Shown: positions 26,411-44,075 of the stretch, one piece after another
Layout of the letters: each line of letters starts with the position of its first letter
How positions within the stretch are numbered: position 1 is the stretch's first letter
Source: a virus
Virus record (IMG/VR): IMGVR_UViG_3300030399_000026
DNA: 47,825 bases
Reading direction: 5' to 3' (one strand)
Translations under genes and position numbers: made by a program
Notes under the pieces: generated by a model
What the model saw: the letters and a program-made list of their open reading frames with translations, nothing else
The model's database searches: none
Told to the model about the DNA's origin: nothing

Positions 26411-26420
26411 GGAGACCGCC

Positions 26421-27161
26421 ATGCCGAAAGCCTCAACCCGGACCTCGGCTGGCGCGTACTTCTCGCGCTGGCTGAAGAAGTTCCGACTTGACTACAACTA
26501 CACCGTATCGGGGCTCACCGATGTCACCGGCATAGCGGAGCGGTCCCTGCACGCCTACGAGGGCAATGAATTCGACCCCACCCTTAAGCACCTTATTGTG
26601 CTTAGCGTCTTCAGTGGGGTTTCGATTCCTGATATGGTAGGGGTCCGAATCACCGGCCTACCCCCCAAGATGGGAGGTGTGCGCTACAACTACCGCACCG
26701 GGGACTGGACCGCCAAGTTCGTAAGCGGCACCAAGGGGGGCAACGCTTACCTGGGCCACTTCACCACTGAGCAGCAAGCCCTAGACGCCATTCAAAAGCA
26801 ACGGAGAATTCACAGTGGCAATCCCAAACTGCCGAGAGATGTTCATACCGGACAATGGACGGGAGATGTTCGACCTGGACTTGGACTCAGCGGACCTGAG
26901 AATAGTGACGTGGGAGTCGAACTGCCGGGGGATGAAAGACCTGTTCGCGGCAGGAGTAAAGCCTTACGTAGCCGTCGCGCAGGAGTATTACCACGACCCG
27001 TCGATCACGAAGTCCCACCCGGCCTACCAAGTCTTCAAGAAGCTGTGCCACGGGACCAACTACATGGGGAAGCCCCCTACGATAGCCGGACAGTGTGGCC
27101 TTTTGGTCAACGATGTGACACGGATTCAGAAGTGGTACTTCGAGAAGTTCCCGGAAATTAA
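26421..27161 (+). CDS. HTH plus AP2-domain DNA-binding protein (real 3' end uncertain)
   Basis: RBS aaggag plus 7 nt. The XRE-like HTH is TVSGLTDVTGIAERSLHAYEGNEFDPTLKHLIVLS. The AP2-like segment is GVRYNYRTGDWTAKFVSGTKGGNAYLGHFTTEQQALDA. After about 26810 the frame overlaps polymerase part II and reads as R/P/G-rich off-frame sequence. No nuclease motif was seen. Confidence 0.5.
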   Translation: MPKASTRTSAGAYFSRWLKKFRLDYNYTVSGLTDVTGIAERSLHAYEGNEFDPTLKHLIVLSVFSGVSIPDMVGVRITGLPPKMGGVRYNYRTGDWTAKFVSGTKGGNAYLGHFTTEQQALDAIQKQRRIHSGNPKLPRDVHTGQWTGDVRPGLGLSGPENSDVGVELPGDERPVRGRSKALRSRRAGVLPRPVDHEVPPGLPSLQEAVPRDQLHGEAPYDSRTVWPFGQRCDTDSEVVLREVPGN

Positions 27162-27531
27162 GCAGTGGCAAGAGCGCCTCACTAAGAAAGCGGAGCGCAC
27201 TGCCACGATGGAGAATGCTTTCGGCTATCGGCGCAGGTGGTTCGACCGGGTCGAGGGCAACATCATCAACGAAATGGTGGCATGGATTCCCCAATCCACC
27301 GTAGCCATCATCATCAACCACGCCTACACAAACATCGATGCGAACCTACCTGATGTGGATATATTGCTTCAAGTACACGACTCTCTTACTGGGCAGTTTC
27401 CGCTGGAAGATCGTGAGAAGCATATCGCGGATATCACCCGCGAAAGTACCATTGTCGTTCCTTACCCTGATCCTCTTATCGTCCCTGTTGGCCTGAAGCT
27501 ATCGACGGATAGTTGGGGGCGTTGCAAATGA
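26815..27531 (+). CDS. Family-A DNA polymerase, part II: palm and fingers motifs A, B and C (238 aa, GTG start)
   Basis: RBS ggag plus 8 nt precedes GTG 26815. AIPNCREMF continues the NLQNIP...R..F element. Motif A is LDLDSADLRIV, motif B is FKKLCHGTNYMG and motif C is LLQVHDS. Confidence 0.8.
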   Translation: MAIPNCREMFIPDNGREMFDLDLDSADLRIVTWESNCRGMKDLFAAGVKPYVAVAQEYYHDPSITKSHPAYQVFKKLCHGTNYMGKPPTIAGQCGLLVNDVTRIQKWYFEKFPEIKQWQERLTKKAERTATMENAFGYRRRWFDRVEGNIINEMVAWIPQSTVAIIINHAYTNIDANLPDVDILLQVHDSLTGQFPLEDREKHIADITRESTIVVPYPDPLIVPVGLKLSTDSWGRCK

Positions 27532-28715
27532 GAAAGCTAGATAACTGGCTCGACGAGTTCGTGCGCTACGGACAGGTCGGGGAAGCACCGGATCACCTCC
27601 TCTTCTGGACGGGGGTGTCTACTATTGCAGGCGCATTGGGGAGGAAGGTATGGCTAGAGCAGGGATTGTTTCGTTGGTACGCAAACTTCTACGTGGTCCT
27701 CGTTGCTCCCCCTGGGATCATCTCGAAGACAACGTGTGCTGGTATCGGTGTGAAGTTGCTGCGCCAAGTGGACGAGGTGTTCTTCGGGCCGAATGTCGTT
27801 ACGTGGCAAGCATTGGTTTCGTCCTTCAAGAAAGCGAACTCAGTTACCGAGGAGGGTCATGGCGAGTCTATTGAGACCCATTCACTCAACATTTTTTCTG
27901 GGGAGTTTGGAAACCTGCTGACCCCGAACGACCGGGAGATGATGGACATGCTGGTGTCCCTATGGGACTGCGCATCGATCTACAAGGAGACGAAGAAGGA
28001 TGGCGCTGAGTCGATTGAGAACACCTTTCTCAACCTGATTGCATGCACTACGCCCGGGTGGATTAGCGGCAACATCCCCCCGTACATGATCGAGGGCGGG
28101 TTGGTGAGCCGTATCATCTGGGTCTATGGGGAAGAGAAGCGGAAGCTGGTTGCCTACCCCGGCTTAGCCTTCAACACGGCGGCAAGTGAGATGCGCAGGC
28201 AGGAGATTCGCCTCGTCGAGGACCTCCGTGCTATCTCCAAACTGAAGGGCGAGTTCGGCATGACGGAGGAGGCTATCGCTTGGGGCGAGGAGTGGTATCA
28301 GGCCCACTACTTCCTCCACAAGAAGGGCGCCGATGACGCACGCTTCGGGGGCTACCTCGCCCGGAAGCAAACCCATATCCACAAGCTGGCGATGATCCTA
28401 TCCGCCGCCCGTGGCGATTCCATGCTCATCACCGTCGAGGACCTACAAAATGCTGAGACCCATATCACCGCGCTGGAAGCCAGCCTGCCGCAAATCTTCG
28501 ACCGCATTGGGAAATCTGAGACATCATCGCAGACTGATCGACTACTCTCATTTATCGGGCAACATGCGCAAGGAGTGCCGATGGCTACGGCTTATCAGCA
28601 TGTACACAACTACTTCCCCAAGCTTGATGATTTCCAAGCGGTGGTCAAAGGGCTTAAAGCTGCGGGTATGGTGAAGCAGAGGGTTGAAGGAGGAACAATC
28701 CTCCTCCACCTTTAG
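27528..28715 (+). CDS. P-loop replication protein, helicase-like (DUF3987/primase-helicase-type resemblance, 395 aa)
   Basis: ATGA overlap with polymerase part II. It has a deviant Walker A, VLVAPPGIISKTT, preceded by FWTGVSTIAGALGRKVW. Position and size fit a replicative helicase, but the family call is weak. Confidence 0.5.
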   Translation: MRKLDNWLDEFVRYGQVGEAPDHLLFWTGVSTIAGALGRKVWLEQGLFRWYANFYVVLVAPPGIISKTTCAGIGVKLLRQVDEVFFGPNVVTWQALVSSFKKANSVTEEGHGESIETHSLNIFSGEFGNLLTPNDREMMDMLVSLWDCASIYKETKKDGAESIENTFLNLIACTTPGWISGNIPPYMIEGGLVSRIIWVYGEEKRKLVAYPGLAFNTAASEMRRQEIRLVEDLRAISKLKGEFGMTEEAIAWGEEWYQAHYFLHKKGADDARFGGYLARKQTHIHKLAMILSAARGDSMLITVEDLQNAETHITALEASLPQIFDRIGKSETSSQTDRLLSFIGQHAQGVPMATAYQHVHNYFPKLDDFQAVVKGLKAAGMVKQRVEGGTILLHL

Positions 28716-29182
28716 AGAGCGGCGATGAAGAAGAGGCGGTTCGTCCACCCCTTCCCGTAATTCGCCCACACCCCTAGACCTTCGAGGTGCTGAAGATGCA
28801 ACGTGAGATATTCGTGATAGCGGGTGGTATCGAAACTGCGCAACGCTGTGAGCGTTTGTGGCCCAAATACCCCATCGACCGGCACACCTACAAGCTGCTG
28901 GAGCAACTTAACCGCCGCTGTCCCCCCACTCATGACACAGGCATTGAAGTACCAAAGGTCAAGGTGTGCTGGCATCTGCCCACATTGCCATTTCAGCCAG
29001 TAGTCTTGGTAGTAGATGGCCGACGCCTGAGCCTCGGTGAGGTTGGCGATATCGAGGTTCGGATAGGAAGCCTTCGAGATGCCGAAGTTGGTCTCACCTC
29101 CGGGGTCCGAGGGGTCATTCACATACCCCCCTTCCAGTTCGAGGATGAATGGTACACAGTAGTCAAAGTTGATATTGCACAT
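28712..29182 (-). CDS. Endolysin, GH108 lysozyme with a PG-binding-like C-terminus (156 aa)
   Basis: ILELEGGYVNDPSDPGGETNFGIS is the GH108 signature. It is followed by ...VPVDGVFGPQTLTAL, a PG_binding_3-like segment. Confidence 0.85.
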   Translation of the reverse strand: MCNINFDYCVPFILELEGGYVNDPSDPGGETNFGISKASYPNLDIANLTEAQASAIYYQDYWLKWQCGQMPAHLDLWYFNACVMSGGTAAVKLLQQLVGVPVDGVFGPQTLTALRSFDTTRYHEYLTLHLQHLEGLGVWANYGKGWTNRLFFIAAL

Positions 29183-29406: not shown

Positions 29407-29886
29407 TTACGGTTGGAGGTATTCGATACGGAAGTTGGTGGAGATTCCGCTGGCGGCGACCGTGCAGGTCCCGGCTGGGCTGATGAAGGCGCGGACGGAG
29501 AGGGACTGTCCCGCTGTCAGCGCCGTCAATATATCCACCGAGACCGTGTTGATGTAGGCAACGCCCGCCGACTGGTTCTCTGATAGCTCTCCTATCGCGA
29601 CAGCACCGCCCGCCGCTTGAATGATAACCTCCAAGACCGCAGGGGTAACCGCCGCTGTGGGGACATTACTCAGTAGCAACGTAGCCGACACCCGGTACAA
29701 TCCACCCCACGGAGCGGTGTAGACTTCGGTGCCCGTGTTGTACGCGGAGAAGTTGTCGTACTCGACGGTATTAAACGCCACCGCAGTTTGAGTATTGGCC
29801 GAGATGGTTTGCGGCGTGCTGAGGCTAACCATTGTCAGGGGGCGATTCCCCGGCAACTCGGGTTGCCCTTGGAAGATGTGTCCCAT
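29407..29886 (-). CDS. C1q/TNF-like jelly-roll protein, probable fibre tip or receptor-binding protein (159 aa)
   Basis: Starts at internal ATG 29886 with a TAATG overlap. AFNTVEYDNFSAYNTGTEVYTAPWGGLYRVSATLLL resembles the C1q-type F..V..D....Y.....F.AP..G.Y pattern. Confidence 0.5.
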   Translation of the reverse strand: MGHIFQGQPELPGNRPLTMVSLSTPQTISANTQTAVAFNTVEYDNFSAYNTGTEVYTAPWGGLYRVSATLLLSNVPTAAVTPAVLEVIIQAAGGAVAIGELSENQSAGVAYINTVSVDILTALTAGQSLSVRAFISPAGTCTVAASGISTNFRIEYLQP

Positions 29887-30209: not shown

Positions 30210-30677
30210 TTAGAGAGGCACGAGAACAGAACAGATAAGCAACAGATCGTCCGGTGCAATCTTGCTGTCCGGTGTCGATGGCTTGTAGATGGCGCCCGAG
30301 TCAATCAACCCTGCTGTCACCAGTTGCGAACAGAACCAGTTCGAGGGATTGGACCAAGCGGCGCCGAAGAAGAAGGCGAGGATGGCGAGTTGATTGTACT
30401 CGCGCCCGACTTGCTTCATCAAGAACGCGTAGTACTCTTGCTCAACCGCATTACTCACCGGCAGGACCACACGGCGAGTCTGGTAGTCAAGCACGTAATC
30501 GGCGGGGCGAATCTGCACCCCTTTGGGAACACCCATCACAACGTCGCTGCGGGCGCCAAGCAATCTCCCATCCGGGAGGACAGTGTCGACGTGGCTGTAG
30601 AGGCCGTGGTCGAACCACCTTATCAATTGGGAACCGAAGTCCCCGTTCGAGGTGAATTGGAGAGTGATGGCGCCCAT
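30210..30677 (-). CDS. Permuted NlpC/P60-superfamily (YiiX/C92-like) hydrolase (155 aa)
   Basis: A His-first, Cys-second order is seen: GLYSHVDTVLPDGRLLGA ... NWFCSQLV. Confidence 0.6.
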   Translation of the reverse strand: MGAITLQFTSNGDFGSQLIRWFDHGLYSHVDTVLPDGRLLGARSDVVMGVPKGVQIRPADYVLDYQTRRVVLPVSNAVEQEYYAFLMKQVGREYNQLAILAFFFGAAWSNPSNWFCSQLVTAGLIDSGAIYKPSTPDSKIAPDDLLLICSVLVPL

Positions 30678-31273: not shown

Positions 31274-31555
31274 TCACTGGGACAGGAATCCAGTGTAGAT
31301 GCCCAGTTGGTGGGTGTAGGAGAGGGAGTCGGTCACCACGCCCGTTACCGTGAGGTTGCCGCCCACCGTCTCGCTGCCCGTCACGGCCAAGTTCCCCGTG
31401 ACCGTAGTCGTGGGAGGAGGCCCTGCCGAGAAGGAGATGTTGGTGGTCGCCGCCTGTACCCCCGTGATAGCCTGCCACGCTTGGTAAATCCAGTCCGTGA
31501 AACTCCCCAGTCCCGTCAACTGCTGGGTCGGTGGTTGCTGCAACGGTTGTGCCAT
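31274..31555 (-). CDS. Small fibre-like protein with TGNLxVTG repeats (93 aa from ATG 31555)
   Basis: TAATG overlap with the stop of the ATP-grasp gene. Contains VTGNLAVTGSETVGGNLTVTGVV. Confidence 0.5.
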   Translation of the reverse strand: MAQPLQQPPTQQLTGLGSFTDWIYQAWQAITGVQAATTNISFSAGPPPTTTVTGNLAVTGSETVGGNLTVTGVVTDSLSYTHQLGIYTGFLSQ

Positions 31556-32862
31556 TAGAAACTCCACTCCTTAGCAAATCCCATAGCCTTCAAATCCTTG
31601 ATATGCCCCTCACAACGATCACCAATATCATGACGATAGGCGGGACTATTAGGAATCTCCAACTGTTTAACCACACGGTACGCATCATCCTTAGCATCGC
31701 TGACAGATGCACCAGTACCAACCACAACAAGAGGCCACTCCCCCGCAGTGCAGAATAAATCTCGTGCTTCCCATTTTCCATTCTCGAAGACCTCATGCTC
31801 CTTCGCCATGACCTCCACGAGGTGGACGTTCTTCCAGTTCTTGTGGTCGATGCCGAAGAGCGGGATGCCGTCGACTTCCTCGTGGGGGATGTGGCAGTGC
31901 GGGAAGGAGGGTCCGACTATGCACACCCCGATGCAATGGTCATATGATACGCGAAGAGAGTCTTTCCCGTGGACGAGGTCGTAAATCCATGTGGCCGGGT
32001 CGCCCTTGTGGAGGTGCTGGTTCAGGTAGAAGGCGGGCCAACCGCAGCGCATGGTGAATTCCAGGGGCCACGGCACCCCTTTCTCATCGATCATCACCGA
32101 TACGTCGATGTTGCCGCAAAACTTGATGGCCTTGAGAGCTTGCTCTAAGGGGCGGAGGACCATGTCTCCAAGCGTGCTGTGGTCGACGTACTTCATTGCC
32201 GTTCCCATTTCGCCTGTATTCATTCCGATGTCGTGGGCAAAGAGCTTCTTGTGTTCGAAATTTTCTTCGGTCACGCTACTAAAGCCGTGCGGCCCAAACC
32301 ACGCACCACAGGCAAACTCCACCCCCTTCATCTTGTCCTGAAGGATGAAGTCCTGCTTAGCTGACCCATAAACCTTCTGCGCCCGCTTCATCATAGCTAC
32401 CAGATCGTCAGGCCCCTTCCCGACATAGCTAAGAGCGCGGTCAGCATCACCAATAGGCTTGCAAGCAAACTCACCGTTACTAGATTTGATATGGGCAATC
32501 GCATCATCGTAAGACGAGAAACGGGTATATGGAAGCACCTTAATGCCGTGATCCTCAAGCACCTGCTGACCCACGCACCGGTCGAGTTCCCAAGCCGCAG
32601 CGGCCTTGTTGGCCCCGAATATCGGGTAGCCCTTCGCATAATAGTCCTCCATCTCCCAGCCATACTTGGCTGATGCAGTACACATGATGAGGTCAGCCCA
32701 GCGCATCCACTGGCGCCAATCCTTAACCCGGTTCGTCAGGCCCATGCCGATGTTAGGCCGCTTACCCGGAGAGAGGTAGTGCTTAACATCATGGCCTGCC
32801 GCCTGACTCCTGACGCAGAAGTCCACCCCCGTCCCATACACATCAATCATTAGAATCTTCAT
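31555..32862 (-). CDS. PurD-like (phosphoribosylamine-glycine ligase family) ATP-grasp enzyme, diverged (435 aa)
   Basis: Collinear with PurD by eye. [12 protein letters not shown] matches [40 protein letters not shown] matches [47 protein letters not shown] matches [32 protein letters not shown] matches VIEFNCRFGDPE. The C-terminal [20 protein letters not shown]...RHDIGDR matches VTALGHTVAEAQKRAY...RKDIGWR. It has an ATGA overlap with the upstream internal-protein gene. Confidence 0.75.
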   Translation of the reverse strand: [435 protein letters not shown]

Positions 32863-35858
32863 TGCGCATCCCTCTTCGCATCAGCCCGTGCATTGGCCTT
32901 GTTCGTCCGTTCTAACCACTTCTGCGTTTTCTCGACCTGTTCCCGGCTGGGATTATTAATCCCAAACTGTTGCAAGATAATCTGCTTAACAGACTTCTTG
33001 CCCGAGTTATACGACTGCACCAACGCCAACGGCGCCAGTTGCTTCTCCAGATACTTATCCAACCCAGTCCCGCCGCTACCATAAATCTTCTTACCCGTGA
33101 ACGAGTCCTTGTCGCTTGCCAATTCCCCGGCCATCTTAAACGCAGGGCTAGACGGGAACGCCGTCCCCATGATCTGGGTAGCATCCTTCTTCCCTACGAA
33201 AGCATCGTGGACAAGGGTAGGGATAGTAGCAGGGCCATAGCGAGTCGCAGTGGCGTTCGGATTCCCTGTGACAGTCGCGGCCATCTTGTCCATAATATGC
33301 GGATAAACGAAGAAGGAAATGAAAGCAGTCGCAGCGATCTGATCCAAAGCCTTAGCTCGTTGAAGGGCATTAAGTCCCTTGTCGGTTCGAGTAAGGTCAG
33401 TAAGCATATGGCCGTAAGAAGCCATACGGCCATAGTCGTAACGTCCAAAAGCAGCGATGGCCGGATTACGGAGCGCAAGACTAAGACCACGACTGCCAAG
33501 CACTCGATTGGGAACACGATAGTTCGGCACGTGCTTTTCCACGTCCGCCACTGCCTCTGCCACTGTATACCCCGCACGTTCCTTCTCCAAGTAGGCTTGC
33601 ATCATGATGACATCGTTGGTGAACCAGAGCGACTTACGGGATGTGCCGTAGACGGCCTTGACCCATGCGGCGGGGTTGGCGTAGCCGAATGACTTTGCCA
33701 ACGAGCCCGCTGCCGGATCGGAGCCGACCTTCTTCAACACCGTCTCGAAGAAGTCATTCGTGTAGACACTCGGGTACATCAACCCCGCACCTTCATTCAG
33801 GTACTTCATGTAATTGTGGTCCTTATTCCAGACTGCTTTCCATGCGTCGACAGTGGTGGTGGTCAGGTTCGGGTTCAACGCCCTGCCTGCCTCTTTGCCC
33901 AGCGCCACCACATTGCCCACCAGCCCCTTCGCCACGACCGAGTGCGTCAGCACGTTCATGATGTGAGTGAGCGGGTTGAAGAATAGACTCCCCACCACAA
34001 ACCGAGTCAACTTCCCAAGCCTGTCGACAAGATCACCGTGTACCGTGCCCTTAAAGTCTTCAAAAGTTTCCGCCATCTGCGGATGCATCTTCCACCCTTC
34101 GAACTGACGCGTCCCTGGCATGTCAACAGTACGCCAGTCTGCGGGCGCGGCCGACGTTGCAGGCCTTGCCATTTGCAGGAACTCAGGCGTGGTCTTAATG
34201 TTCTCAATCGCTTGCGCATTGATGAGGGCCTTCTGCATGTCGACGTTCGCTTGGACAACAGCAGCAACCGGGTCCTTGTGGTATCGAGAGTTGGTGTTGG
34301 CCTCGATTTCCTTGACGGTTGCATCGCCTTTCTTTGCCCACGTTGCACCTTGAACTGCGACTCCACCTTTGCCATCTTCGACTCCACTCGCAATGCGCTG
34401 GTTGTTCTTATAGAGGATGACCCGATCCGTCTGCGGGTCCGTGACACCGATGAGTCGGTCGCCGCCAGGGGACTCGACAGCGAAGGTCGTCCGCTCCTTC
34501 AACTCGGGCGCACCAGTCGCCAGTGTCTTGGGCTTAGTCTTGACATCCATAGGCGCATCGAAGTCCCCGAAGAGACCTCGTGTCGGCTTATCCATCGGGC
34601 GCCGGGTTATGTAGTTCGCTTGGTCCGGTCCCACGTCGATGCCGTAGTCGTTCTTGAGCCGGTCTCGGAGGAGCGCCGTCTTTTTAGCCACCGGATCAAG
34701 CACGTTTTTCTTCCAAGCAAGCGCATCCGGCGAGAGTTTAGACGTGTCCCCACTATCATAGGCATGGAAGATGTCCTCCTTGATGGCGGCGTAGTTGGCG
34801 GGAAGTTGCTGGTCGACACTCGCCATCCACTTGGTCATGATGGCGTCAGTCTTTCCCTCAGCCCGAGCGAGTTGATGGCTCACGTGTCGAGCCGATTGCC
34901 CCGCAACCATATTGGCATGTGCCGTGTCTTGGGCACCGAGCAGGAACTTCGCCACCGGGTCGAGCGCATCCTGAAGAGTCTTGCTCCGGGTCAGCCCAAC
35001 AGGCGCAGCCATCTGCGTGATCGTATCAATCGTCGGGTCCCACTTCGATGGAATGCCCAGTTGATGGGCTACCTGTTTGGTAGGGTCTCCCAGCAATCCC
35101 TGAGTCACACTCGTCACCGGAGAGAAAGGCAGACCCAGCGCATCAAGAGCGGTATGAAAAGCCCCCTTGATGGAAGGCTTCTGCACCAACTTCCCGATGT
35201 CACTGAACAAAGTCTTGGCATCCTGCGCCATGAGGTCCACTGCCCTGTCTGCCGGATGCATAATGGCGTAGAGCGGGTCTCCAGGCTGGGTCTCCCCCTC
35301 GTGGAAGAAACCGGCTTGTGCCAGTAACGGATGCTCCTTCGAATCCTTCTGCGCCTGTTGCATCTGCTGTTGCTTCTGTTCGACGGGGCTAGGCTTCTGC
35401 GCAGCGGCAGGAGGCGTAGGCCCCTTCGACAGCGACGATAGAGCAGGAGGTGCATCATCCCCGAACAAGGCGGATGCCGGTGGCTTCCACTTAGTCATCA
35501 GACCGTTGACGTAGTTCTTGGTCTCGTGGTTATCGAGGTTGCCGTTAGGCCCTGCGTTGTAACGAGCGAGTCCCTTGGCGACATCGCCACCTGAGAGGTC
35601 GATCATCTTCTTCAGGTAGGGGGCACCAGCATCCGGGTTCTTAGGGTCGAACGGAGCCAGCCCAAAGCCTGGACTCTTCGCAGTCGAGGGCATCACCTGA
35701 CTCGCCCCCACCGCACCCTTCTTCGAGACGGCGTCATTCCGGGTGTTGCTCTCCTGCTCCTTCACCAAAGGCCACAGCCCCTTAGGCAACCCAGCCGCCT
35801 CACCCGGATCGGGCGGCGGACCAAACACATCGTTAGCGGTAGGCAGTGCTTGTGCCAT
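32859..35858 (-). CDS. Giant internal virion (ejection) protein with an N-terminal SLT lytic transglycosylase domain (999 aa from ATG 35858)
   Basis: KEQESNTRNDAVSKKGAVGASQVMPSTA...LARYNAGPNG shows the E-S, (G)xxQ and YNAG SLT motifs. The size and position resemble T7 gp16-type proteins. TAATG overlap with the upstream gene. Confidence 0.8.
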   Translation of the reverse strand: MAQALPTANDVFGPPPDPGEAAGLPKGLWPLVKEQESNTRNDAVSKKGAVGASQVMPSTAKSPGFGLAPFDPKNPDAGAPYLKKMIDLSGGDVAKGLARYNAGPNGNLDNHETKNYVNGLMTKWKPPASALFGDDAPPALSSLSKGPTPPAAAQKPSPVEQKQQQMQQAQKDSKEHPLLAQAGFFHEGETQPGDPLYAIMHPADRAVDLMAQDAKTLFSDIGKLVQKPSIKGAFHTALDALGLPFSPVTSVTQGLLGDPTKQVAHQLGIPSKWDPTIDTITQMAAPVGLTRSKTLQDALDPVAKFLLGAQDTAHANMVAGQSARHVSHQLARAEGKTDAIMTKWMASVDQQLPANYAAIKEDIFHAYDSGDTSKLSPDALAWKKNVLDPVAKKTALLRDRLKNDYGIDVGPDQANYITRRPMDKPTRGLFGDFDAPMDVKTKPKTLATGAPELKERTTFAVESPGGDRLIGVTDPQTDRVILYKNNQRIASGVEDGKGGVAVQGATWAKKGDATVKEIEANTNSRYHKDPVAAVVQANVDMQKALINAQAIENIKTTPEFLQMARPATSAAPADWRTVDMPGTRQFEGWKMHPQMAETFEDFKGTVHGDLVDRLGKLTRFVVGSLFFNPLTHIMNVLTHSVVAKGLVGNVVALGKEAGRALNPNLTTTTVDAWKAVWNKDHNYMKYLNEGAGLMYPSVYTNDFFETVLKKVGSDPAAGSLAKSFGYANPAAWVKAVYGTSRKSLWFTNDVIMMQAYLEKERAGYTVAEAVADVEKHVPNYRVPNRVLGSRGLSLALRNPAIAAFGRYDYGRMASYGHMLTDLTRTDKGLNALQRAKALDQIAATAFISFFVYPHIMDKMAATVTGNPNATATRYGPATIPTLVHDAFVGKKDATQIMGTAFPSSPAFKMAGELASDKDSFTGKKIYGSGGTGLDKYLEKQLAPLALVQSYNSGKKSVKQIILQQFGINNPSREQVEKTQKWLERTNKANARADAKRDAQ

Positions 35859-37117
35859 TATTGAACCCACCCTTGTTTACGTGCATAGGCGATAGCATCA
35901 TCTCGGCTGATCTTCTTGTCCTTGACGGCTTGCTGGAGAGAGAGGACCGAGTCGAACTTGCCTGCGGTTGCGGCAGGCGGCAACGGCTTACCCTGTGCTT
36001 GCGGGCCTGCTTTGGGCTGAACCTTCGGCGGGATGTGGGAGTACTGAGGATCGCTGCCGAACATGCCATTGCCGCCCGGAACAGAAGGCTTGAACAGCCC
36101 TTCCTTATCCATCTGCTGCATCGTCTCTTCCAGCGCTTGGTCGTAGTCCTCGGGCTCGTAGGTCGAGCCTGCGGGAGCATCCTTCAAGTCCTGAGACAAC
36201 TTCAACTTCGTCCGCTGCGCCGCCATCGTGGCTACCGTATCGCGGAGGTTAGTCGGCATGTTGGCCGTGCGGTCATCGGTTGCGAAGACGCCCTTGGCCG
36301 CATCGAGTTCCGGCTTCTGCACCTTGGCCGCATTCGCCGCCTGACGAGCCGTGTCCCCGAGCTTGTGCATGTCGAGTCCTTCCTGCGCCCGCTGGTCCCG
36401 AATGGCGTCCTCACCCACCTTATGATGTTGCATGAACTCCGCATCCTGGGTGCGCTTCTGCTCAAGGTTGAGCTTCTGGATGCTGATGCCAAGGCCCTGG
36501 TCGAGTTGAGACAGGCGAGCACTGCGGTAGGAGTTCAATCCCTTGTAGGCTTGCTCCTTATCGGAGGCCGTGGTCTGCTGGGCGGCGGTCATCGTCGACT
36601 TGGCGATCTGCTGAAGCTTGGGCGCATCCTGCTGATAGTCACCCGTCAGGTTCAACGTCGAGATATCCACACCCGCCGCCTGGAGTTCCGGCAGTGCAGC
36701 GTTGTAAGCCTCTTGCGAATCAACCGCGCTGAGGATGCCTCCTACCGCCTTCATCTTGTTCTGCTGGTTGGACTGCTGGAGCTTGCTAGTCTCGGCGGCA
36801 CGATACCCCGCCATCGAGATAGACGACAGCAGAGAGCCCGCCTCCTTGACATTGCCCGTCTTGAACATCAGACCAGCGGTTGCCTGAAGTTTAGGCAGCA
36901 TGTCGGGCGTTGGGTTGGATGCCGCATCGGTTGCCGTCAATCCCGCGCCGGGTCCCCAAATCTGCTGCATGCCATCCTGCATCGACTTCTGATTTGCCAA
37001 CTCCACCTTAGCGGCCTCGTTGGTTGTCTTCAGATAGTCGGTGCGTGCCTTCTCCTGCTCCGCTTGGATGGGCGCCGAGTAGCCTCGGAATGCAATATCA
37101 AACAAAGAATCAGCCAT
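35858..37117 (-). CDS. Internal virion protein (419 aa)
   Basis: Gln/Ala/Lys-rich, coiled-coil-like, and located in the ejection-protein block. Confidence 0.55.
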   Translation of the reverse strand: MADSLFDIAFRGYSAPIQAEQEKARTDYLKTTNEAAKVELANQKSMQDGMQQIWGPGAGLTATDAASNPTPDMLPKLQATAGLMFKTGNVKEAGSLLSSISMAGYRAAETSKLQQSNQQNKMKAVGGILSAVDSQEAYNAALPELQAAGVDISTLNLTGDYQQDAPKLQQIAKSTMTAAQQTTASDKEQAYKGLNSYRSARLSQLDQGLGISIQKLNLEQKRTQDAEFMQHHKVGEDAIRDQRAQEGLDMHKLGDTARQAANAAKVQKPELDAAKGVFATDDRTANMPTNLRDTVATMAAQRTKLKLSQDLKDAPAGSTYEPEDYDQALEETMQQMDKEGLFKPSVPGGNGMFGSDPQYSHIPPKVQPKAGPQAQGKPLPPAATAGKFDSVLSLQQAVKDKKISRDDAIAYARKQGWVQ

Positions 37118-37119
37118 GC

Positions 37120-37869
37120 TTAGTCACCTCCTCCAGAACCACCACCTTCCCCACCATCTCCACCGCCGTCACCACCATCGCCGCCATCTCCTTGCCCACC
37201 GCCGTAGGAGCCTACTCCTGTGCCTGCGCCGGGACCGCCGAGGGCGCCGGAGTCTGTTCCTTGTCCGCTGCTGGCCGCGCCTTCAGCATTGGCGCCCGAG
37301 TCCGCCGACTGGCCGGGGCCTGCGAAGCCTGCCGTGTTGGCACCGACTCCAGCGACACCAGATGTGGCACCGAGGGCCGCAGCGTTGGCATTGGTCTGCC
37401 CCGCCGACATTGCGTTCGAGTCGCCGCCTGGAGCGTTCTTGACTGCTGTCTTGACGCCGAGGCTGAGGGCGAGCCCGACGATACCGCCAATCGGCCCACC
37501 GATAAGGCCCCCAATTGCCATGCTCCCGATCTGGCCCATTATACCGCCCATGACCGAGCCGAGAGCGCTTGAATCGCCGCCAAACTGGCTGGAAGCTGTC
37601 CCCCCTACTCCTGCACCATGCCCGCTGCCAGCAGCCCCGCCACCGCTGCCCTGGTTGGCTGAGCCGCCCTTGCCGTTCACAGCGGACCCCGCCGACTGAG
37701 TTCCCCCCAACGCCGTAGTCAGAAGGTTCCCCAGGTTCGAGTTCACCTGATTGGAGTTGTACCCATTCCCCCCATACAGCGCCTTCAAGTTCTGTATCGA
37801 GGCGAGGGGGTTAGCACTGGGGTCGTTCTGCTTGACGCTCAGGGCTTGTGTCAGAAAGTTATCCATCAC
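37120..37869 (-). CDS. Gly-rich membrane-active internal protein (249 aa)
   Basis: Contains a glycine-zipper hydrophobic core, SVMGGIMGQIGSMAIGGLIGGPIGGIVGLALSLG. The C-terminal tail is (GGD/GGG)n. Confidence 0.55.
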   Translation of the reverse strand: MMDNFLTQALSVKQNDPSANPLASIQNLKALYGGNGYNSNQVNSNLGNLLTTALGGTQSAGSAVNGKGGSANQGSGGGAAGSGHGAGVGGTASSQFGGDSSALGSVMGGIMGQIGSMAIGGLIGGPIGGIVGLALSLGVKTAVKNAPGGDSNAMSAGQTNANAAALGATSGVAGVGANTAGFAGPGQSADSGANAEGAASSGQGTDSGALGGPGAGTGVGSYGGGQGDGGDGGDGGGDGGEGGGSGGGD

Positions 37870-39095
37870 AGCCCCAAGAGAGCGCTCAACCCATCACTCA
37901 CGCCGGAGTCAGTACCGCCCGACAGGAGGGACTCGAAGCCGCCACTTGCAGAAGAGCCGAGGGAACTATCCAGCCCATCCACTGTCAGACCGCTCAATGC
38001 CCCCTGAGCGGAGCCACTGCCGAAGAGACTGGACAGGCTGTCAGAGATGCCGGAGGAGTTGCCGCCGAAAAGGCTGGACAACAAGCTGCCTGCGCTGCTG
38101 CCCAAAGCGGACCCTGCTCCCGTGATACCGGCGCCGATGTTGCCGAGTGCGGTGTTCGTGTTGGCGAACTGGCCCGAGAGAATCTGCCCCGCTGCTCCCG
38201 GCGAACCTGTGGTAGCCCCGCTCAACTGGCCCAAGGAACTCAACAACCCCTGATTGGCATTGTTGATGTTGCCAGTCGAGGCGTTGTAGAGGGACCCTGC
38301 TCCGCTGATCTGGCTCATGAGGTTGCTGGCCGTGTCCTGCTGATTCGTGACAGCGGCGCTGTTGAACCCCATCTCGTTCTGCTCTTGTTGTTGGAGCAAG
38401 GAGGCTTCACCTTGGTTCTGCGCCAACCCTTGGTTGAAGGTCTGCCCCTGCAACGCGGCCTGCTCTTGCGTGGCTTGGAGGTTCTCGTTGTTGGCGGTCG
38501 TCGAGCCTGTGACCAGATCGTTGAAGGTCTGCTGGTAGGCGCCGGAAGCGTACTGCTGCCCGTACTGTTCGAGTTGGGTAAGAGCCGCGCCCGAGACAGC
38601 CGTGCCACTGGAGGCAGCACTGCGAGTAGCCGAGTTGAGCCCGAGTTGGTACTGCGCCTGGATGGCGGGGTTGCTCATGTAGTTACCGGCGAGCGCAGAC
38701 AATTGGCTCGTGAGGTTTGAGCCTGCGTTGTTCTCGGAGGCGGTCGTCGACCCGGCGTTAGTGTTCAACCCGGCGATACCACTGATCTGGCCGTTGAGTG
38801 CGGAGGTCAGGTTCTGCGCCGTGGAAAGAGCCCCCGGATCACCAGTGACAGCAGTGTTGGCCCCCATCAAAGCGTTGCCCGCCCCTGTGGTCAACTGTGA
38901 CCCGGCAGTGGCTTCGGCGCCCGTGTTAGCCAACTGCCCGCTCACCATCGGCTGGTAGTTGGCATACTGTCCGCCGAAGGGGGAAGCCGCAGCAGCGCCC
39001 GCCGCAGCGTTAGTCCCCGCCGAGCCGAGTTGCGAAATGCCCGCAGCACCACTGAAGATGCCCGAGAGAAGTTGTGCCAGCGAAGATGGGTCCAT
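37866..39095 (-). CDS. Low-complexity Gly/Ser/Ala/Gln/Asn-rich internal or tail protein (409 aa)
   Basis: Long clean ORF with an ATGA overlap to the next gene. Confidence 0.55.
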   Translation of the reverse strand: MDPSSLAQLLSGIFSGAAGISQLGSAGTNAAAGAAAASPFGGQYANYQPMVSGQLANTGAEATAGSQLTTGAGNALMGANTAVTGDPGALSTAQNLTSALNGQISGIAGLNTNAGSTTASENNAGSNLTSQLSALAGNYMSNPAIQAQYQLGLNSATRSAASSGTAVSGAALTQLEQYGQQYASGAYQQTFNDLVTGSTTANNENLQATQEQAALQGQTFNQGLAQNQGEASLLQQQEQNEMGFNSAAVTNQQDTASNLMSQISGAGSLYNASTGNINNANQGLLSSLGQLSGATTGSPGAAGQILSGQFANTNTALGNIGAGITGAGSALGSSAGSLLSSLFGGNSSGISDSLSSLFGSGSAQGALSGLTVDGLDSSLGSSASGGFESLLSGGTDSGVSDGLSALLGL

Positions 39096-39096
39096 T

Positions 39097-41940
39097 TTAG
39101 AAGCTTCCCAAAATAATTTCTAACTCAAGGGCTTCGGCCCGGAATGCTACTGGTTCAGTGTGGCGAATCTTGAATGCCCTGCGGCGGAACCTGCCTGCCG
39201 GTGTCACCGTTGCCCGTTGCCCTTGCTGCGTACTCATGAAGCGGCTAGACGAATACGACTGGTAGTCGTTATCCGAGTAACTCACCATCACGTTGAAGGA
39301 CTGGATGTCCGCGATGAGGGTGATACGGCGGCAGACCTTCCACTGGCTTATGCCGCCATCGTACCGGTCGGTGATGATCTGGAGGTCGATAGGTCCACCG
39401 TTGTCCGTCACGTCAGTCGAGTCCTGTACGTAGATGGCGCCGCTCGTCGGGTCCTGAAGATAGTCCAAGTCCATCACCTGGGCACTGGCGACCGGACGGA
39501 AACAGTTCTCCGAGAAGTTGGCGAACCCAGCATTGCCAGGATTCCCTGCCGGAGCCGTACCGATCTGGTACGTGAACGTGTTGGTGTCGACTACCGTGAT
39601 GTTGAAGATGCCGTTGTAGTCCGGGATGACGGCGCCCTGGATAACGACAGGATCGCCATCCGAGGAGCCGTTGTTGGGCACCACTGCCGTCACCGTGCCA
39701 TACGGGTCCGCTTCCAACAGCGTAACCTGCTGAGTCGGGTTCTGCGTGTTGGACGTGAAGATGGTCCACAGGCCCGAGTCGAACGAATAAACGAGCGTGA
39801 TGTTAGTCGTGCGCAAGGTCAACACGTAGCAGCTATGGCCGTACTGATCCACCGAGAACGCCGAGATGTTATTCAACGGATCGTTCTGGAGGATACGGTC
39901 GACGAACGCTGTGCTGATTTTCACCGGCATATAGTTCTGGATCATGTAGACCGAGGCACCTTCACGCCGGGTCTGGCCGATCCACACGACCGAGTTCTGC
40001 ATCTCGATCACCGACTCGCCAGCGGCGCACCCAACCAGCGAAGGCAGGGACGTGTTGGGCAGGAGCGGGGAAGCGGGCGGCGGTACACCCGCATCCGCGA
40101 AGAACTCCATGCTCCACACACCGAAGCCCACCACGTAGTTGAGGTACTTGGCAATCGCCACCCCACCGTTTGGTTCGTTCTCCATTGCAATGAAGCCTAA
40201 GGCAGTCCACGTCGAAGGGTCGTTCTCTGCCGAGTTCCAAATCTGCCCTTCGGGGTCCATCACGAAGAAGAAGGTATCGAGGTAGACGATGCCAGGGACC
40301 GTGACGGTTGGGTAGTTAGGAACGTTCGACAGCTTCGTCAGGGCGTTCAGGTTCGAGTTGAACGAGTACAGGTCATGCGTCGACTTGAACACCAGCAGGG
40401 GCGTGGTGATCGAGGTAGCGGTCTGAGTGAAGTGGTAGAAGCCGCCTGCTACGTTAGGGGCCAGGGCCACCGTCAAGCCGGTGAAGTCGACCAGCCACAC
40501 GTCATCGTAGAAGGTGGAGGTTGCCGTGGCTTCCCCACCAATCTCCCAGAGATTGCCGAAGCCGAAGAAGGCGCCGCCACTTCGTACCGGCCACCCCGCC
40601 GAGAAGTTGGTGCCCGTATTCTCGAAGGTCACGCCGTCCGTGGTCGACCAGATACGTTGAACGTCAGAGCCGGAGGCGCTGTATTCGAGGAGGTAGACGA
40701 CACCGTTCAGGGTAGTGGCCTGGAGTTGTTTGGCCCCGCCGTTGGAGGTGCCGTCCAGCATCGCATAGGCGCCAGCATTGAACCCAACGTTCAGGCCAAA
40801 GGCTACGTTCGGGGCTCCCGTGTAGCCGCTTCCGACGTTGCCGAAGGTGACTTGTACGTAGGGTCCGAGGGCTGACTTGTCCCCATCCCCATCGTCATCA
40901 AAGTCTGTAAAAGCATAAGCTGTTGCTCCCGTGCCGCCAGTGCCACCAGAAACCGTGATCGGGCTCGGGATAGGGAAGTCTTGCCCGTAGGAGTCAAACG
41001 CCGCAATAGGCCAAACACCAGATGCCGCAACAGCGAACGGGTTTGAAGATGAGCGGGTCCAAGTAGTGCCATCGGGGGAGGTCCAGCAATCAGAGGTTGC
41101 AAAGTGGAAAGGGTCCGACAGTTGTCCGCCGACGACCGTCAGCTTGGTGCCCATCCAGAAGAAGCCGAGGTTCGAGCGGGCAACCCACGGGGCTTCCTTG
41201 GCGCACTGCGTCCACGAGACGCCGTCAGGGGAAGACCAGACATCGGAGTAGAAGGTGTTGCCTGCTCCGTTGGAGGCGGGACCGGCTGTACCCCCTGCGA
41301 TGTACATGAGAGAAGAGGAGGCGGTGACGCCGAAGGAGAACCGAGGGCCGAATGCCGCCGCACTGATCTGAGTCCAGTTGATCCCATCGGGGGTCGACCA
41401 CACATCCCCGAAGACGATGTTGCCCGAGCCAACACCAGTCGTCCCGCCCATCAGGTAGAGGGTGTTGTTGAAGACGATGACCGAGGCGCCGCCCCTGGGG
41501 AACCATGCCGCCGTCCCATTGTTGACCCAGGCCAAGCCATCGACCGACGACCAGATATCGTTCTGTGGGACTCCTGCCGAATTGATGCCACCGAATATCC
41601 ACAGCTTGCCTTGGAAGCCAACTCCCATAGGCAGTGTGCGGGTAGAGAAGGTAGCCGACCCTGTGACCTGTTGAGCGGTCAGGACGATGGAGGACGCCCC
41701 GAACGCATTGAGCGTATCGCCCGAGATGGAGTAGAGGTTGCCGAGGTAGTTGTCGATGCCCTGCCCAATACCTACCGTCCCCTGGAACGCCAACCTTTGC
41801 CCCGGCCTTTTGATGACGCGCAGAGTCCCCCGAGTCGACTGCTCGATGATCCCGTTGAGGACCTTCGCATCGGTCGAGGTGGTAGCGTCCCTGTTCTCCA
41901 GGGGCTCGACAAGAGGGAAGCGGACTGGCGGTTGATCCAT
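39097..41940 (-). CDS. Tail hub/nozzle protein (P22 gp10 / T7 gp12-like ends) with an inserted beta-propeller (947 aa)
   Basis: The N-terminus, FPLVEPLENRD...KVLNGIIEQSTRGTLRVIKRPG, resembles the stabilisation/nozzle family. Residues about 105-300 carry 4 or more roughly 48-aa repeats of the form xxGG...D(V/I)WSSxDGxxWT, which are Kelch-like blades with Asp-box SxDGxxW. Confidence 0.6.
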   Translation of the reverse strand: MDQPPVRFPLVEPLENRDATTSTDAKVLNGIIEQSTRGTLRVIKRPGQRLAFQGTVGIGQGIDNYLGNLYSISGDTLNAFGASSIVLTAQQVTGSATFSTRTLPMGVGFQGKLWIFGGINSAGVPQNDIWSSVDGLAWVNNGTAAWFPRGGASVIVFNNTLYLMGGTTGVGSGNIVFGDVWSTPDGINWTQISAAAFGPRFSFGVTASSSLMYIAGGTAGPASNGAGNTFYSDVWSSPDGVSWTQCAKEAPWVARSNLGFFWMGTKLTVVGGQLSDPFHFATSDCWTSPDGTTWTRSSSNPFAVAASGVWPIAAFDSYGQDFPIPSPITVSGGTGGTGATAYAFTDFDDDGDGDKSALGPYVQVTFGNVGSGYTGAPNVAFGLNVGFNAGAYAMLDGTSNGGAKQLQATTLNGVVYLLEYSASGSDVQRIWSTTDGVTFENTGTNFSAGWPVRSGGAFFGFGNLWEIGGEATATSTFYDDVWLVDFTGLTVALAPNVAGGFYHFTQTATSITTPLLVFKSTHDLYSFNSNLNALTKLSNVPNYPTVTVPGIVYLDTFFFVMDPEGQIWNSAENDPSTWTALGFIAMENEPNGGVAIAKYLNYVVGFGVWSMEFFADAGVPPPASPLLPNTSLPSLVGCAAGESVIEMQNSVVWIGQTRREGASVYMIQNYMPVKISTAFVDRILQNDPLNNISAFSVDQYGHSCYVLTLRTTNITLVYSFDSGLWTIFTSNTQNPTQQVTLLEADPYGTVTAVVPNNGSSDGDPVVIQGAVIPDYNGIFNITVVDTNTFTYQIGTAPAGNPGNAGFANFSENCFRPVASAQVMDLDYLQDPTSGAIYVQDSTDVTDNGGPIDLQIITDRYDGGISQWKVCRRITLIADIQSFNVMVSYSDNDYQSYSSSRFMSTQQGQRATVTPAGRFRRRAFKIRHTEPVAFRAEALELEIILGSF

Positions 41941-42674
41941 TACCGGCTCCGGGTATCGTAGAGGAACCTGACCGAGTCCGTGTTCTCCTGCGACCAGTTA
42001 ATCATGTCCTCGTAGGCTTTCGCCGCGCGCTGTTGGATCATCTGGACGCGGTCGAGAGACGTGGCGTATTCGAGGCTGATCTCATTGGCAAGGCACCACG
42101 TCAACCCCATGTAGCATTCCTGGGGGAAGTCGACCGGGTCAGTGCCAATCTCGACATCGTTCAGCGTCACGAGGCCAATCATCCGCAACGAGTAGTTGTC
42201 ATCGGCAGGAGTGGGGTAGACGAAGATTTCAGAGTTCTGCGGTTCGATACTCCCGTTGTTGTCATTGAACGGGCGATAGAGCATCGAGTTCACTACGCCC
42301 AGGGAGTTCTTGCTTCCGTACATGTTGTACTCTTGAATCGAGAGTTGATCGATGGGAGTATCGAACTGGGTGGGGTTGAACCGGACGAACGCCTGCTGCA
42401 CCTTCAAGATGCGGGTCGTCACGAGTGAGCCAGTGCCGGTGGCATACGGCCCAATCTGATACGTCCTCTGTCCCGCCACCAGCGGCAGCACCGTCTCGAC
42501 CACCTTCCACATAGGCTGGCCCTGGAGTATCCACGCCTTAATCATCATATTGAAGGCGAGACTCACATACTGGTAGTCTTGGCTGGTCGGCGGGTTCGTG
42601 GCGTCGTAGGTGCCACAGAGCCTCAGAGCCCTGTTGATGACATCGTCCCGGCTAACGCTAAAAGTGGTGCTCAT
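41940..42674 (-). CDS. Head-to-tail adaptor-like protein (244 aa)
   Basis: The pattern VINRALRLCG...QDYQYVSLAFNMMIKAWILQGQPMW resembles podovirus adaptor (gp4/gp11-type) N-termini. It lies directly upstream of the hub gene with a TAATG overlap. Confidence 0.5.
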   Translation of the reverse strand: MSTTFSVSRDDVINRALRLCGTYDATNPPTSQDYQYVSLAFNMMIKAWILQGQPMWKVVETVLPLVAGQRTYQIGPYATGTGSLVTTRILKVQQAFVRFNPTQFDTPIDQLSIQEYNMYGSKNSLGVVNSMLYRPFNDNNGSIEPQNSEIFVYPTPADDNYSLRMIGLVTLNDVEIGTDPVDFPQECYMGLTWCLANEISLEYATSLDRVQMIQQRAAKAYEDMINWSQENTDSVRFLYDTRSR

Positions 42675-44061: not shown

Positions 44062-44075
44062 AAATTACTCCTAAG

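Follow-up and report, generated by a model that had tools for sequence, protein, structure and literature searches.

What is an enzyme with the fold of a purine-biosynthesis ligase doing among the genes for the internal proteins of a phage particle? The question is raised by IMG/VR virus record IMGVR_UViG_3300030399_000026, a complete podovirus-type genome of 47.8 kb (47,825 nucleotides, analysed as a whole and called the window below). In its late operon a gene for a 435-residue ATP-grasp ligase lies directly behind that of the largest ejection protein. A sequence-only reading of the window had drawn attention to the gene, noting its likeness to PurD, the phosphoribosylamine-glycine ligase or glycinamide ribonucleotide (GAR) synthetase, and had suggested a role outside purine synthesis. 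Our analysis indicates that its product is very probably an active ligase and not a PurD. Its place points to an enzyme activity at the internal ejection proteins of podoviruses, the least understood part of the particle. Loci are referred to below by L numbers and homologous proteins by P numbers.

Relationship of the ligase to PurD

The ligase matches the Pfam domain GARS_A at 2e-10, its 41.3 bits standing above the gathering score of 27. Its GARS_C score of 28.4 lies below the gathering score of 34.8, and Pfam GARS_N does not match the ligase at all. Against TIGR00877 it scores 90.4 bits (E = 1e-25), so that the equivalog cut-off of 288 bits is not reached. The top match by sequence in the PDB is nevertheless a PurD, that of Geobacillus (1.7e-14), at a general level of ligase-PurD identity of 16-22%. 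When a profile of 60 family members was compared with three authentic PurDs using hhalign, the probability was 100% and the E-value 9.6e-44; the alignment spans ligase residues 1-422 and PurD residues 1-429, i.e. the N, B, A and C domains are collinear. An AlphaFold2 model built from the family alignment (predicted local distance difference test, pLDDT, 93.4; pTM 0.91) was compared with the PDB using Foldseek. All of the top 15 matches are GAR synthetases, with E-values of 1e-28 to 1e-24 and TM scores of 0.70-0.79, and PurK follows at 1e-18.

The relationship to PurD is therefore distant yet certain, and the full-length collinearity proposed in the sequence-only reading holds. The family has in addition a conserved C-terminal extension of about 12 residues past the end of PurD, marked by L424, G428 and a terminal aromatic residue. 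By sequence, the ligase family is best described as a sister family of PurD, neither a PurD orthologue nor a decaying relic of one.

An apparently rebuilt active site

Published roles of PurD residues were mapped via the profile alignment onto 60 family sequences. The roles come from human GARS (PMC2978367) and Aquifex PurD (PMC8880213); those of the ligands of phosphoribosylamine (PRA) are taken from the former, those at the glycine site from both, and that of the ATP phosphate-binding Lys from the latter. PurD residues are numbered here as in the Escherichia coli and Salmonella enzymes, and what is said of the pocket is to be understood as a mapping of sequence onto these roles.

The positions that handle ATP and the acyl-phosphate are kept in all 60 sequences. 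Besides the phosphate-binding Lys, K135 (Table 1), these are E92 and R95 (PurD E102 and K105), Q175 at the hinge (E187), E182, binding ribose (E194), E203 and K205 (D214 and K216), the counterparts of PurD T227, G228 and G231, the Mg ligand E268 (E286), the acyl-phosphate-stabilising R272 (R290), and R410 and D412 of the C-terminal R-x-D-I-G motif (R416 and D418). Position D/E176 is invariant or nearly so, and the conservation of K135, Q175, D/E176, E182, K205 and R272 extends to about 90 representatives. The sequence-only reading had allowed for a structural relic that had lost its ATP-binding residues; K135, Q175, E182, K205, E268 and R272 are all present in 60 of 60.

The residues that recognise the substrates of PurD have fared differently. 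The PRA ligands of the GGREHA motif are variable, R11 being replaced by S, V, T, C, N or A and E12 by G, F or A. D293 of the GDPE motif, which in PurD binds the amines of glycine and PRA and acts as general base (PMC2978367), is a Trp (W275) in every sequence. E295 of the same motif becomes A, L, T, C or H, so that of the glycine-site residues D214 and R290 are retained, as E203 and R272, and D293 and E295 are replaced. In the PNTGGMG loop a Glu, E218, invariably stands for G229. The pocket is thus not PurD-like, and with R11, E12, D293 and E295 lost or replaced the earlier suggestion of a non-purine role is upheld.

The metal site has changed too. The Mg ligand N288 is a Thr (T270) in 60 of 60, and an invariant acid, D253, stands where PurD has Y271, a site which we take to be the first metal ligand position of classical ATP-grasp enzymes. 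Of the Mg triad (acid ... E-x-N), E268 is therefore present, the Asn is an invariant T270, and D253 takes the place of the PurD Tyr; this fits a rebuilt metal site made up of D253, E268 and T270. The Gly-rich B-loop GLAAGKG has become G-D-A-D-(K/R)-A-L-S-Y, in which the basic residue alone is kept (K/R142, in 55 of 60), and here the pLDDT of the model falls to 72-83. The motif changes quoted in the sequence-only reading, EFN to EFT, GDPE to GWPA and the replacement of GLAAGKGV, are exact.

Together these positions give a family signature, E203 / T216-x-E218 / D253 / E268-x-T270-x-R272 / aromatic-275-P276, where the three PurDs have D / T-x-G / Y / E-x-N-x-R / D-P-E. About 90 representatives show it, with identity as low as 27%. 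On this mapping the ATP and acyl-phosphate apparatus is intact, and the substrate and metal sites appear rebuilt. It is this signature, along with the biological context described below, that is new; the chemistry and the fold are known. The ligase should not be regarded as a PurD, for it falls short of the equivalog score, has lost PRA and glycine ligands, and stands outside the pathway context. As to the last of these, no purine-pathway family matches any of the 54 other window ORFs (open reading frames) scanned, in line with the sequence-only reading, and the related loci likewise hold no other purine genes.

Inteins within the catalytic motifs

Among the top 150 representatives of an exhaustive search clustered at 50% identity, about 17 are 740-816 residues long, the ligase being interrupted by an insertion of about 320 residues. 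The insertion points are N215/T216, G220/T221 and T270/x271, all of them inside the two most conserved motifs (Table 1), and their junctions are canonical intein junctions. In P0122 the sequence runs GVN/CFSADTEIL...VTHN/TGEMGT, in P0131 NTGEMG/CYSDDSEVLT...WCGN/TVIKY, and in P0192 EWT/CYDKETEVL...CGN/CRFGWP, the slashes marking the junctions. Pfam detects LAGLIDADG domains in P0124, P0192 and P0194, with weak Hint matches in P0194. The carriers of inteins or mini-inteins are P0122, P0124, P0130-P0132, P0144, P0156, P0168, P0189, P0192, P0194, P0218, P0246 and P0255; the inteins of P0144, P0156 and P0189 terminate in Gln, not Asn. The window copy (31555-32862) contains no intein.

Inteins typically persist at functionally constrained sites of genes that are important to the element carrying them. 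Their positions would therefore lend independent support to a functional active site in the ligase, and three intein points in a single accessory enzyme provide a natural marker for its catalytic motifs.

Distribution of the family

A word-index search returned more than 5,500 matches to the ligase. The best 120 of these, which were examined, are full-length and 43-94% identical to it, and their contigs are in many cases 40-50 kb long. The exhaustive search of 50%-identity representatives found 186 below an E-value of 1e-30 and 709 below 1e-10. In IMG/VR a relative is carried by at least 564 contigs. The family is large and phage-centred, its carriers being mostly uncultivated podoviruses and prophages. 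Over the ligase the 4.6-kb contig L016 (IMGVR_UViG_3300028795_000129) matches the window at 100% identity, and it has the same 1003-residue ORF upstream, so that the window phage or its population is represented in IMG/VR by this contig too.

In JGI annotation family members are labelled 'phosphoribosylamine--glycine ligase'. Given the active-site comparison this purD metabolic-gene label is probably wrong for them, and virome studies probably count family members as purine 'auxiliary metabolic genes' (AMGs) by way of such automated labels. Elsewhere the family is hardly visible. Among the 50,697 deposited phage records of INPHARED the gene occurs in one only, the uncultured MW202796, at 40% identity and unannotated. 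PHROGs has no family matching the ligase, BFVD offers no close fold match (best TM 0.43-0.50), and there is no ligase match among the PADLOC defence families. We found no PurD-like or ATP-grasp gene in a virion module described in the literature, which agrees with the remark in the sequence-only reading that no function had been described for such a gene in this position.

Among species-representative genomes the gene is also found in large chromosomal contigs of cultured bacteria: five strains of Paraburkholderia, Burkholderia semiarida, Glaciimonas immobilis DSM 23240 and a Rhodanobacteraceae strain. These loci are taken to be prophages because the same cassette is present there, and homologous prophages in cultured Paraburkholderia, Burkholderia and Glaciimonas make the role of the ligase testable. 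They include those of Paraburkholderia tropica LMG 22274 (L111), P. phenoliruptrix LMG 22037 (L117), P. rhynchosiae WSM 3937 (L102) and G. immobilis DSM 23240 (L109). A subgroup at about 30% identity occurs on contigs of metagenome-assembled genomes (MAGs) from Gemmatimonadales, the Candidate Phyla Radiation (CPR) and DPANN.

Linkage to the ejection cassette

The gene boundaries and both overlaps put forward in the sequence-only reading are correct, and the strand, which it did not give, is minus. At the 5' end the ligase shares an ATGA with the 1003-residue ejC, and at the 3' end a TAATG at 31557-31553 joins its TAA (31557-31555) to the ATG (31555-31553) of a 93-residue ORF. Upstream of ejC lie the remaining ejection-cassette genes, the nozzle and the adaptor (Table 1). 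Replication genes are on the plus strand and converge on this minus-strand late block. A consensus scan detected no promoter or terminator signals above chance from about 43.5 kb to the ligase. Composition is native, with GC 0.541, GC at third codon positions (GC3) 0.657 and a codon-usage cosine of 0.86, all within the range of the late genes. The sequence-only reading held the ligase to be expressed stoichiometrically with the structural proteins; that is an extrapolation from the overlap and not an observation.

Distribution among related phages, to which the same reading had looked for a check, was followed in a neighbourhood sample of 85 loci. In 73 of these a co-directional upstream ORF ends at the ligase start, and in 49 of the 73 the overlap is exactly the 4-nt ATGA. 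Complete upstream proteins have a median length of 970 residues (range 61-1931), and 22 match the window SLT protein by BLASTP. Even the exceptional loci keep the order ej409-like protein, protein of about 450 residues, protein of 600-1900 residues, ligase. At 34% identity L098 has the same layout, with a glucosaminidase domain in place of SLT in its large ejection protein. In L066 and L079 the entire ejection cassette together with the ligase lies between adaptor and nozzle, not 3' of the nozzle, so that the ligase keeps to the ejection genes and not to the tail genes. In members of about 30% identity the gene comes directly after the portal (L007/L008) or follows the terminase (L101).

Other enzymes turn up in the same cassette. 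A GNAT gene comes directly after the nozzle in L001 (MW202796, 7936-8346) and L010 (Alcaligenes phage QDWS535, 12778-13206), and an Asp/Arg (LpxO-type) hydroxylase gene occupies that slot in L002 (3203-3703) and L098 (1388-1939). Enzymes thus appear to be a recurrent feature of the ejection cassette.

Three divergent homologues have informative surroundings or fusions. P0265, 31% identical and encoded on a bacterial 73-kb contig (L006), ends in a SET-like domain, and the adjacent gene on the upstream side encodes a paralogous SET protein (2781-3170 and 3179-4915; 28% identity, E = 1e-5); this fusion and adjacency, on a single contig, give a weak hint of a protein substrate. P0231, which is 28% identical with the same signature, is encoded on an archaeal-type MAG contig (L097, 6373-7851 and 8001-9308) next to a PIG-L deacetylase / glucosamine-isomerase fusion, and this neighbour hints at an amino-sugar acceptor in that subgroup. 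P0155 (L009, 8001-10238) has a 396-residue N-terminal extension, rich in Gly, Ala, Ser and Pro, that resembles the low-complexity ejection proteins; its contig has a frameshift in the ligase C-terminus, and the fusion is possibly an assembly artefact. The further neighbours on L006 are an RlmN-like radical SAM enzyme and a CMAS methyltransferase.

Two kinds of acceptor were considered and rejected. C-terminal tagging of the upstream protein in the manner of RimK or tubulin tyrosine ligase (TTL) finds no counterpart in some 50 upstream C-termini, which have no common residue or motif and are merely rich in Lys, Arg and Glu. A Gly-rich acidic tail, modified in the style of tubulin glycylation, was suggested by ej249, whose acidic terminal tail reads GGGQGDGGDGGDGGGDGGEGGGSGGGD. 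The sequence-only reading was right that Gly-rich ejection proteins are encoded in the operon. The link to the ligase that it implied does not extend to relatives: such a tail is present in one of 52 ligase-bearing loci, and Gly-rich ORFs in general, seen in 21 of 52 loci with the ligase and 3 of 14 without it, show no clear enrichment.

An accessory gene

The ligase is not a fixed part of this virion type. Among relatives sampled by their nozzle gene, independently of the ligase, 21 loci extend at least 9.5 kb downstream, and 8 of them have the ligase. Presence varies even between close relatives. L159, with a capsid 89% identical to that of the window, has the gene; L200, at 87% capsid identity, has the nozzle, ej409, ej419 and an SLT-type protein of 1170 residues and no ligase. 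The closest cultured relative by terminase (41.5% identity), Alcaligenes phage QDWS535, lacks it too: there the cassette consists of the GNAT, two further proteins and a 1190-residue protein, and a lysozyme comes immediately after.

Over 580-1140 residues, the large ejection proteins from loci without the ligase share 29-39% identity with those from ligase-bearing loci. These homologues speak against the ligase as a marker of one type of ejC. A recently acquired moron was also considered and rejected, given the native GC, GC3 and codon usage and the lack of a promoter or terminator of its own.

What might the ligase do?

We propose that the ligase derives from the PurD lineage and no longer uses glycine and phosphoribosylamine. 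Mg-ATP would phosphorylate a carboxylate to an acyl-phosphate, held by R272 and K205, and attack by an amine would then yield an amide; the aromatic W275 and the acidic E218 would stand in place of the substrate ligands of PurD. Because ATP is needed, action is expected in a cytoplasm, either that of the producing cell late in infection or that of the next host after ejection, and for the same reason action in the envelope or periplasm is unlikely. As to whether the ligase is functionally tied to virion-internal proteins at all, whether as their modifier or as cargo beside them, the genomic evidence leaves the matter finely balanced.

The reading that we favour, tentatively and with considerable doubt, is by analogy with known effectors: the ligase is predicted to be packaged and injected as cargo. 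Translated directly behind the largest ejection protein, it would assemble into the capsid together with the ejection proteins and travel with the DNA into the cytoplasm of the next host, where ATP is at hand and where it would amidate a host or phage target at the start of infection, a cargo role of the Alt-, Dar- or MuF-effector type. Enzymes encoded among late genes beside portal or MuF genes have been inferred to be packaged and injected, and cargo is favoured because accessory, variable enzymes near portal or ejection genes are the criterion for such effectors (PMC5512222). It is favoured also because the ejC family works without the ligase and the tight coupling to ejC fits co-assembly. 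Catalysis, packaging and target are each predicted here. If the prediction is right, the ligase would amidate a host target (for example one in defence) or a phage target in the first seconds of infection. The wider proposal, a new class of either injected virion-associated ATP-grasp effectors or modifiers of internal virion proteins, is a serious possibility that falls a little short of an even call. Under either version an ATP-grasp enzyme would for the first time have a part in the function of the phage particle, a purine-pathway fold having been repurposed for it.

Several points weigh against cargo. Packaging into virions is deduced from genome context, and synteny would look the same for an enzyme that modifies virion proteins before packaging. 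No fusion to a portal, MuF or ejection protein was seen among 150 representatives, with the sole exception of P0155. A three-domain alpha/beta enzyme of 48 kDa would need to unfold and refold in passing through the tail channel. The change of N288 to Thr and the loss of the Gly-rich B-loop could lower or alter catalysis. The SET fusion is confined to one contig, and the sample on which presence and absence were judged is small (n = 21) and skewed by the search pattern.

Rather unlikely, in our view, is that the ligase acts as a morphogenetic modifier which itself stays outside the particle. In the producing cell it would introduce amide or isopeptide bonds into one or more internal virion proteins, either ahead of procapsid assembly or in its course. 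Its chemistry could be the addition of an amino acid to an Asp or Glu side chain, or the acylation of Lys. It draws on synteny and coupling just as cargo does, and the portal- and terminase-side positions of the distant members are those where prohead proteases and other head-maturation enzymes are found. The GNAT and Asp/Arg hydroxylase in the cassettes of relatives are types of enzyme capable of acting on proteins, the SET-like domain fused to the bacterial homologue is lysine-directed, and the ejC proteins upstream end in Lys/Arg/Glu-rich sequence. Yet the ejC family occurs with and without the ligase, so that modification is not required for ejC function; the C-terminus of the upstream partner shows no conserved residue or motif, no candidate acceptor motif came to light, and the acidic Gly-rich tail occurs in the window alone among 52 ligase-bearing loci. 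Were this version correct, internal virion proteins would carry an ATP-dependent amide or isopeptide modification of a kind not seen before.

A late, moron-like enzyme physically independent of the virion, whose substrate would be a small molecule or an envelope precursor in the cytoplasm (an amino sugar, nucleotide sugar, polyamine or peptidoglycan precursor), strikes us as improbable. The gain and loss of the gene between close relatives would suit such an enzyme, as would its place in the window at the boundary of the ejection and fibre modules. The acceptor of PurD is itself an amino-sugar phosphate, the neighbour of P0231 suggests an amino-sugar acceptor, and the invariant aromatic 275 would be suited to stacking on a sugar or base. 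Against this, the 4-nt coupling to ejC recurs in 49 of 73 loci, the ligase was relocated with the ejection cassette into the structural operon in L066 and L079, and distant members lie inside core head modules; nor does the gene have a promoter or terminator of its own, foreign composition or partner metabolic genes nearby.

That the ligase is a dead relic, its enzyme fold taken over as a scaffold component of the virion or of assembly, is very improbable. The exchange of a Mg-ligand Asn for Thr, the disappearance of the Gly-rich B-loop and the structural genes on either side are what such a relic might show, but the remaining catalytic residues are invariant in 60 sequences and the signature persists down to 27% identity. 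T270 and D253 are themselves invariant, as expected of a rebuilt metal site and not of decay, inteins sit in exactly these motifs, and the B-loop retains its basic residue in 55 of 60 sequences.

Scarcely credible, finally, is a genuine PurD serving as an AMG that boosts purine synthesis late in infection: the JGI naming and the PurD-like fold and ATP site speak for it and virome papers do list viral purD as a purine AMG (PMC11097641, PMC12647753), but 90 bits against a required 288, the absent GARS_N and sub-threshold GARS_C matches, 16-22% identity, the variable R11, E12 and E295, the invariant Trp for D293 and Glu for G229, the lack of any other pur gene among the window ORFs scanned and the instability of PRA (half-life about 5 s; PMC2978367), too great for its use without PurF, already appear to refute it largely in silico.

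Comparison with known systems

With PurD (EC 6.3.4.13; TIGR00877; PDB 1GSO, 2YS6, 2YW2 and 2QK4) the ligase shares the N-B-A-C fold over the full length, the ATP-binding Lys and Glu, the acyl-phosphate Arg and the C-terminal R-x-D-I-G motif. It lacks the GGREHA residues (Arg, Glu) of the PRA site and the GDPE residues (Asp, Glu) of the glycine site, and the family has invariant residues of its own, E218, D253, T270 and aromatic 275; it differs also in its C-terminal extension and in being encoded in phage virion modules, not in pur operons.

T4 Alt, P1 DarA/DarB and the N4 virion RNA polymerase are phage enzymes that are packaged and injected. To our knowledge there is no ATP-grasp or PurD-like member among the described injected phage enzymes. 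Like packaged enzymes, MuF-fused effectors and the 'polyvalent proteins' (PMC5512222), the ligase is encoded by a variable late virion gene next to ejection, portal or terminase genes. It differs from them in being a stand-alone, single-enzyme polypeptide, not a multidomain fusion, and its packaging is a prediction.

The cassette itself recalls gp14-gp15-gp16 of T7 and gp7-gp20-gp16 of P22, the ejection-protein cassettes of those phages. There, as in the window, three consecutive low-complexity or large proteins follow the tail or nozzle genes, and T7 gp16 has an N-terminal SLT domain, as does ejC. We know of no fourth gene with an enzyme fold in the T7 and P22 cassettes, whereas here, in many lineages, translational coupling joins the ligase to the gp16-like protein.

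Other ATP-grasp enzymes act on proteins. RimK, tubulin tyrosine ligase and its TTLL relatives, and the graspetide/microviridin ligases form an acyl-phosphate and then an amide or ester on protein carboxylates or amines. They belong to other ATP-grasp clades, and no conserved acceptor tail or leader peptide was found beside the window ligase. Phages of the phiEco32 type reportedly carry gene sets, described by Iyer and co-workers in 2009, that combine amidoligase, ATP-grasp, Gn_AT_II and COOH-NH2-ligase genes. These are also phage-encoded amide-forming enzymes, but they form multi-gene sets of other families, placed in the early region. According to its record annotation QDWS535 has an early set of this kind, comprising ATP-grasp, Gn_AT_II, amidoligase, COOH-NH2-ligase and gamma-glutamyl-cyclotransferase genes (35678-40026 and 44022-44432), but no PurD-like gene; the window has no amidoligase-type set.

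A precedent for the repurposing of a purine-pathway fold is PurZ, a phage PurA homologue that makes the 2-aminoadenine precursor and in which substrate residues are likewise altered. PurZ, however, has kept a nucleotide substrate and is found among replication and nucleotide genes, whereas the ligase lacks the nucleotide-sugar site and is found in a virion module.

Other features of the window

Table 1. Features of the window that bear on the ligase and its surroundings
Feature	Position	Strand	Evidence or remark
PurD-fold ATP-grasp ligase, 435 aa	31555..32862	minus	ORF call, ATG start, TAA stop
ATGA junction	32859..32862	minus	Ligase ATG 32862-32860 overlapping TGA 32861-32859 of 1003-aa ORF
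Shine-Dalgarno-like GAGGGA, the ligase's own	32869..32874	minus	6 nt 5' of ligase ATG
K135, ATP-grasp phosphate-binding Lys (PurD K145)	32458..32460	minus	Invariant, 60/60; role from PMC8880213
Motif G213-M-N-T-G-E-M-G-T221, counterpart of PurD GPNTGGMG	32200..32226	minus	T216, G217, E218, G220 and T221 invariant
D253, invariant acid at PurD Y271 position	32104..32106	minus	Y271 to D in 60/60
Motif E268-F-T-M-R-C-G-W-P276, counterpart of PurD EFNxRFGDP	32035..32061	minus	E268, T270, R272, W275 and P276 in 60/60
ejC, internal virion/ejection protein, 1003 aa	32859..35870	minus	N-terminal SLT lytic transglycosylase domain, Pfam 3.4e-11
ej419, ejection-cassette protein, Ala/Gln-rich	35858..37117	minus	Homologues in same slot of L159, L162 and L200
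ej249, ejection-cassette protein	37120..37869	minus	30% Gly; acidic Gly/Asp C-terminal tail
ej409, Gly/Ala/Ser-rich, opens ejection cassette	37866..39095	minus	16% Gly
Nozzle / head-closure protein, 947 aa	39097..41940	minus	PHROG 578, 6.9e-36; Phage_stabilise and Kelch repeats
SU10-type head-tail adaptor	41940..42674	minus	Pfam SU10_adaptor, 7.6e-08
Capsid	45686-46606	minus	
Portal	1555-3903	minus	
Terminase	4104-5615	minus	
ORF downstream of ligase, 93 aa	31274..31555	minus	ATG in TAATG overlap
GH108 endolysin, end of late operon	28712..29182	minus	Pfam Glyco_hydro_108, 2e-24

As well as its Pfam match, ejC has a PHROG match to internal virion protein / lytic tail protein; ej419 matches no family in the Pfam and PHROG scans. 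The Kelch-repeat matches of the nozzle protein are N-terminal, at residues of about 110-175, and stand beside its Phage_stabilise domain; nozzle proteins of relatives span 460-1030 residues.

The 93-residue ORF behind the ligase was described as fibre-like in the sequence-only reading, for which support is indirect. In L019 and L020 its homologues form the N-terminal part of proteins of about 245 residues; over its C-terminal part the L019 protein matches a window ORF at 29407-29886 that has a weak C1q match. It is probably the N-terminal module of a tail fibre. Further along the late operon a 155-residue protein (30210-30677, minus strand) matches PHROG 1128, 'enoyl-CoA hydratase/carnithine racemase-like', of the moron/AMG category (1.8e-15), with no match in Pfam or PADLOC.

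On the plus strand the family-A DNA polymerase is split into two parts, 24015-26018 and 26815-27531, about 800 nt apart. The ORFs between them (26015-26410 and 26319-27161) form an insert without a Pfam match. A split polA is also found in L002, QDWS535 and MW202796, the halves being 3.6 kb apart in the last, and the split has the look of a trait of this lineage or of a homing-element remnant. Elsewhere in the early region, also on the plus strand, 14915-15382 has a weak match to HNH-type endonucleases and 22488-22937 encodes a protein with a PNKP-type HAD phosphatase domain (8e-17).

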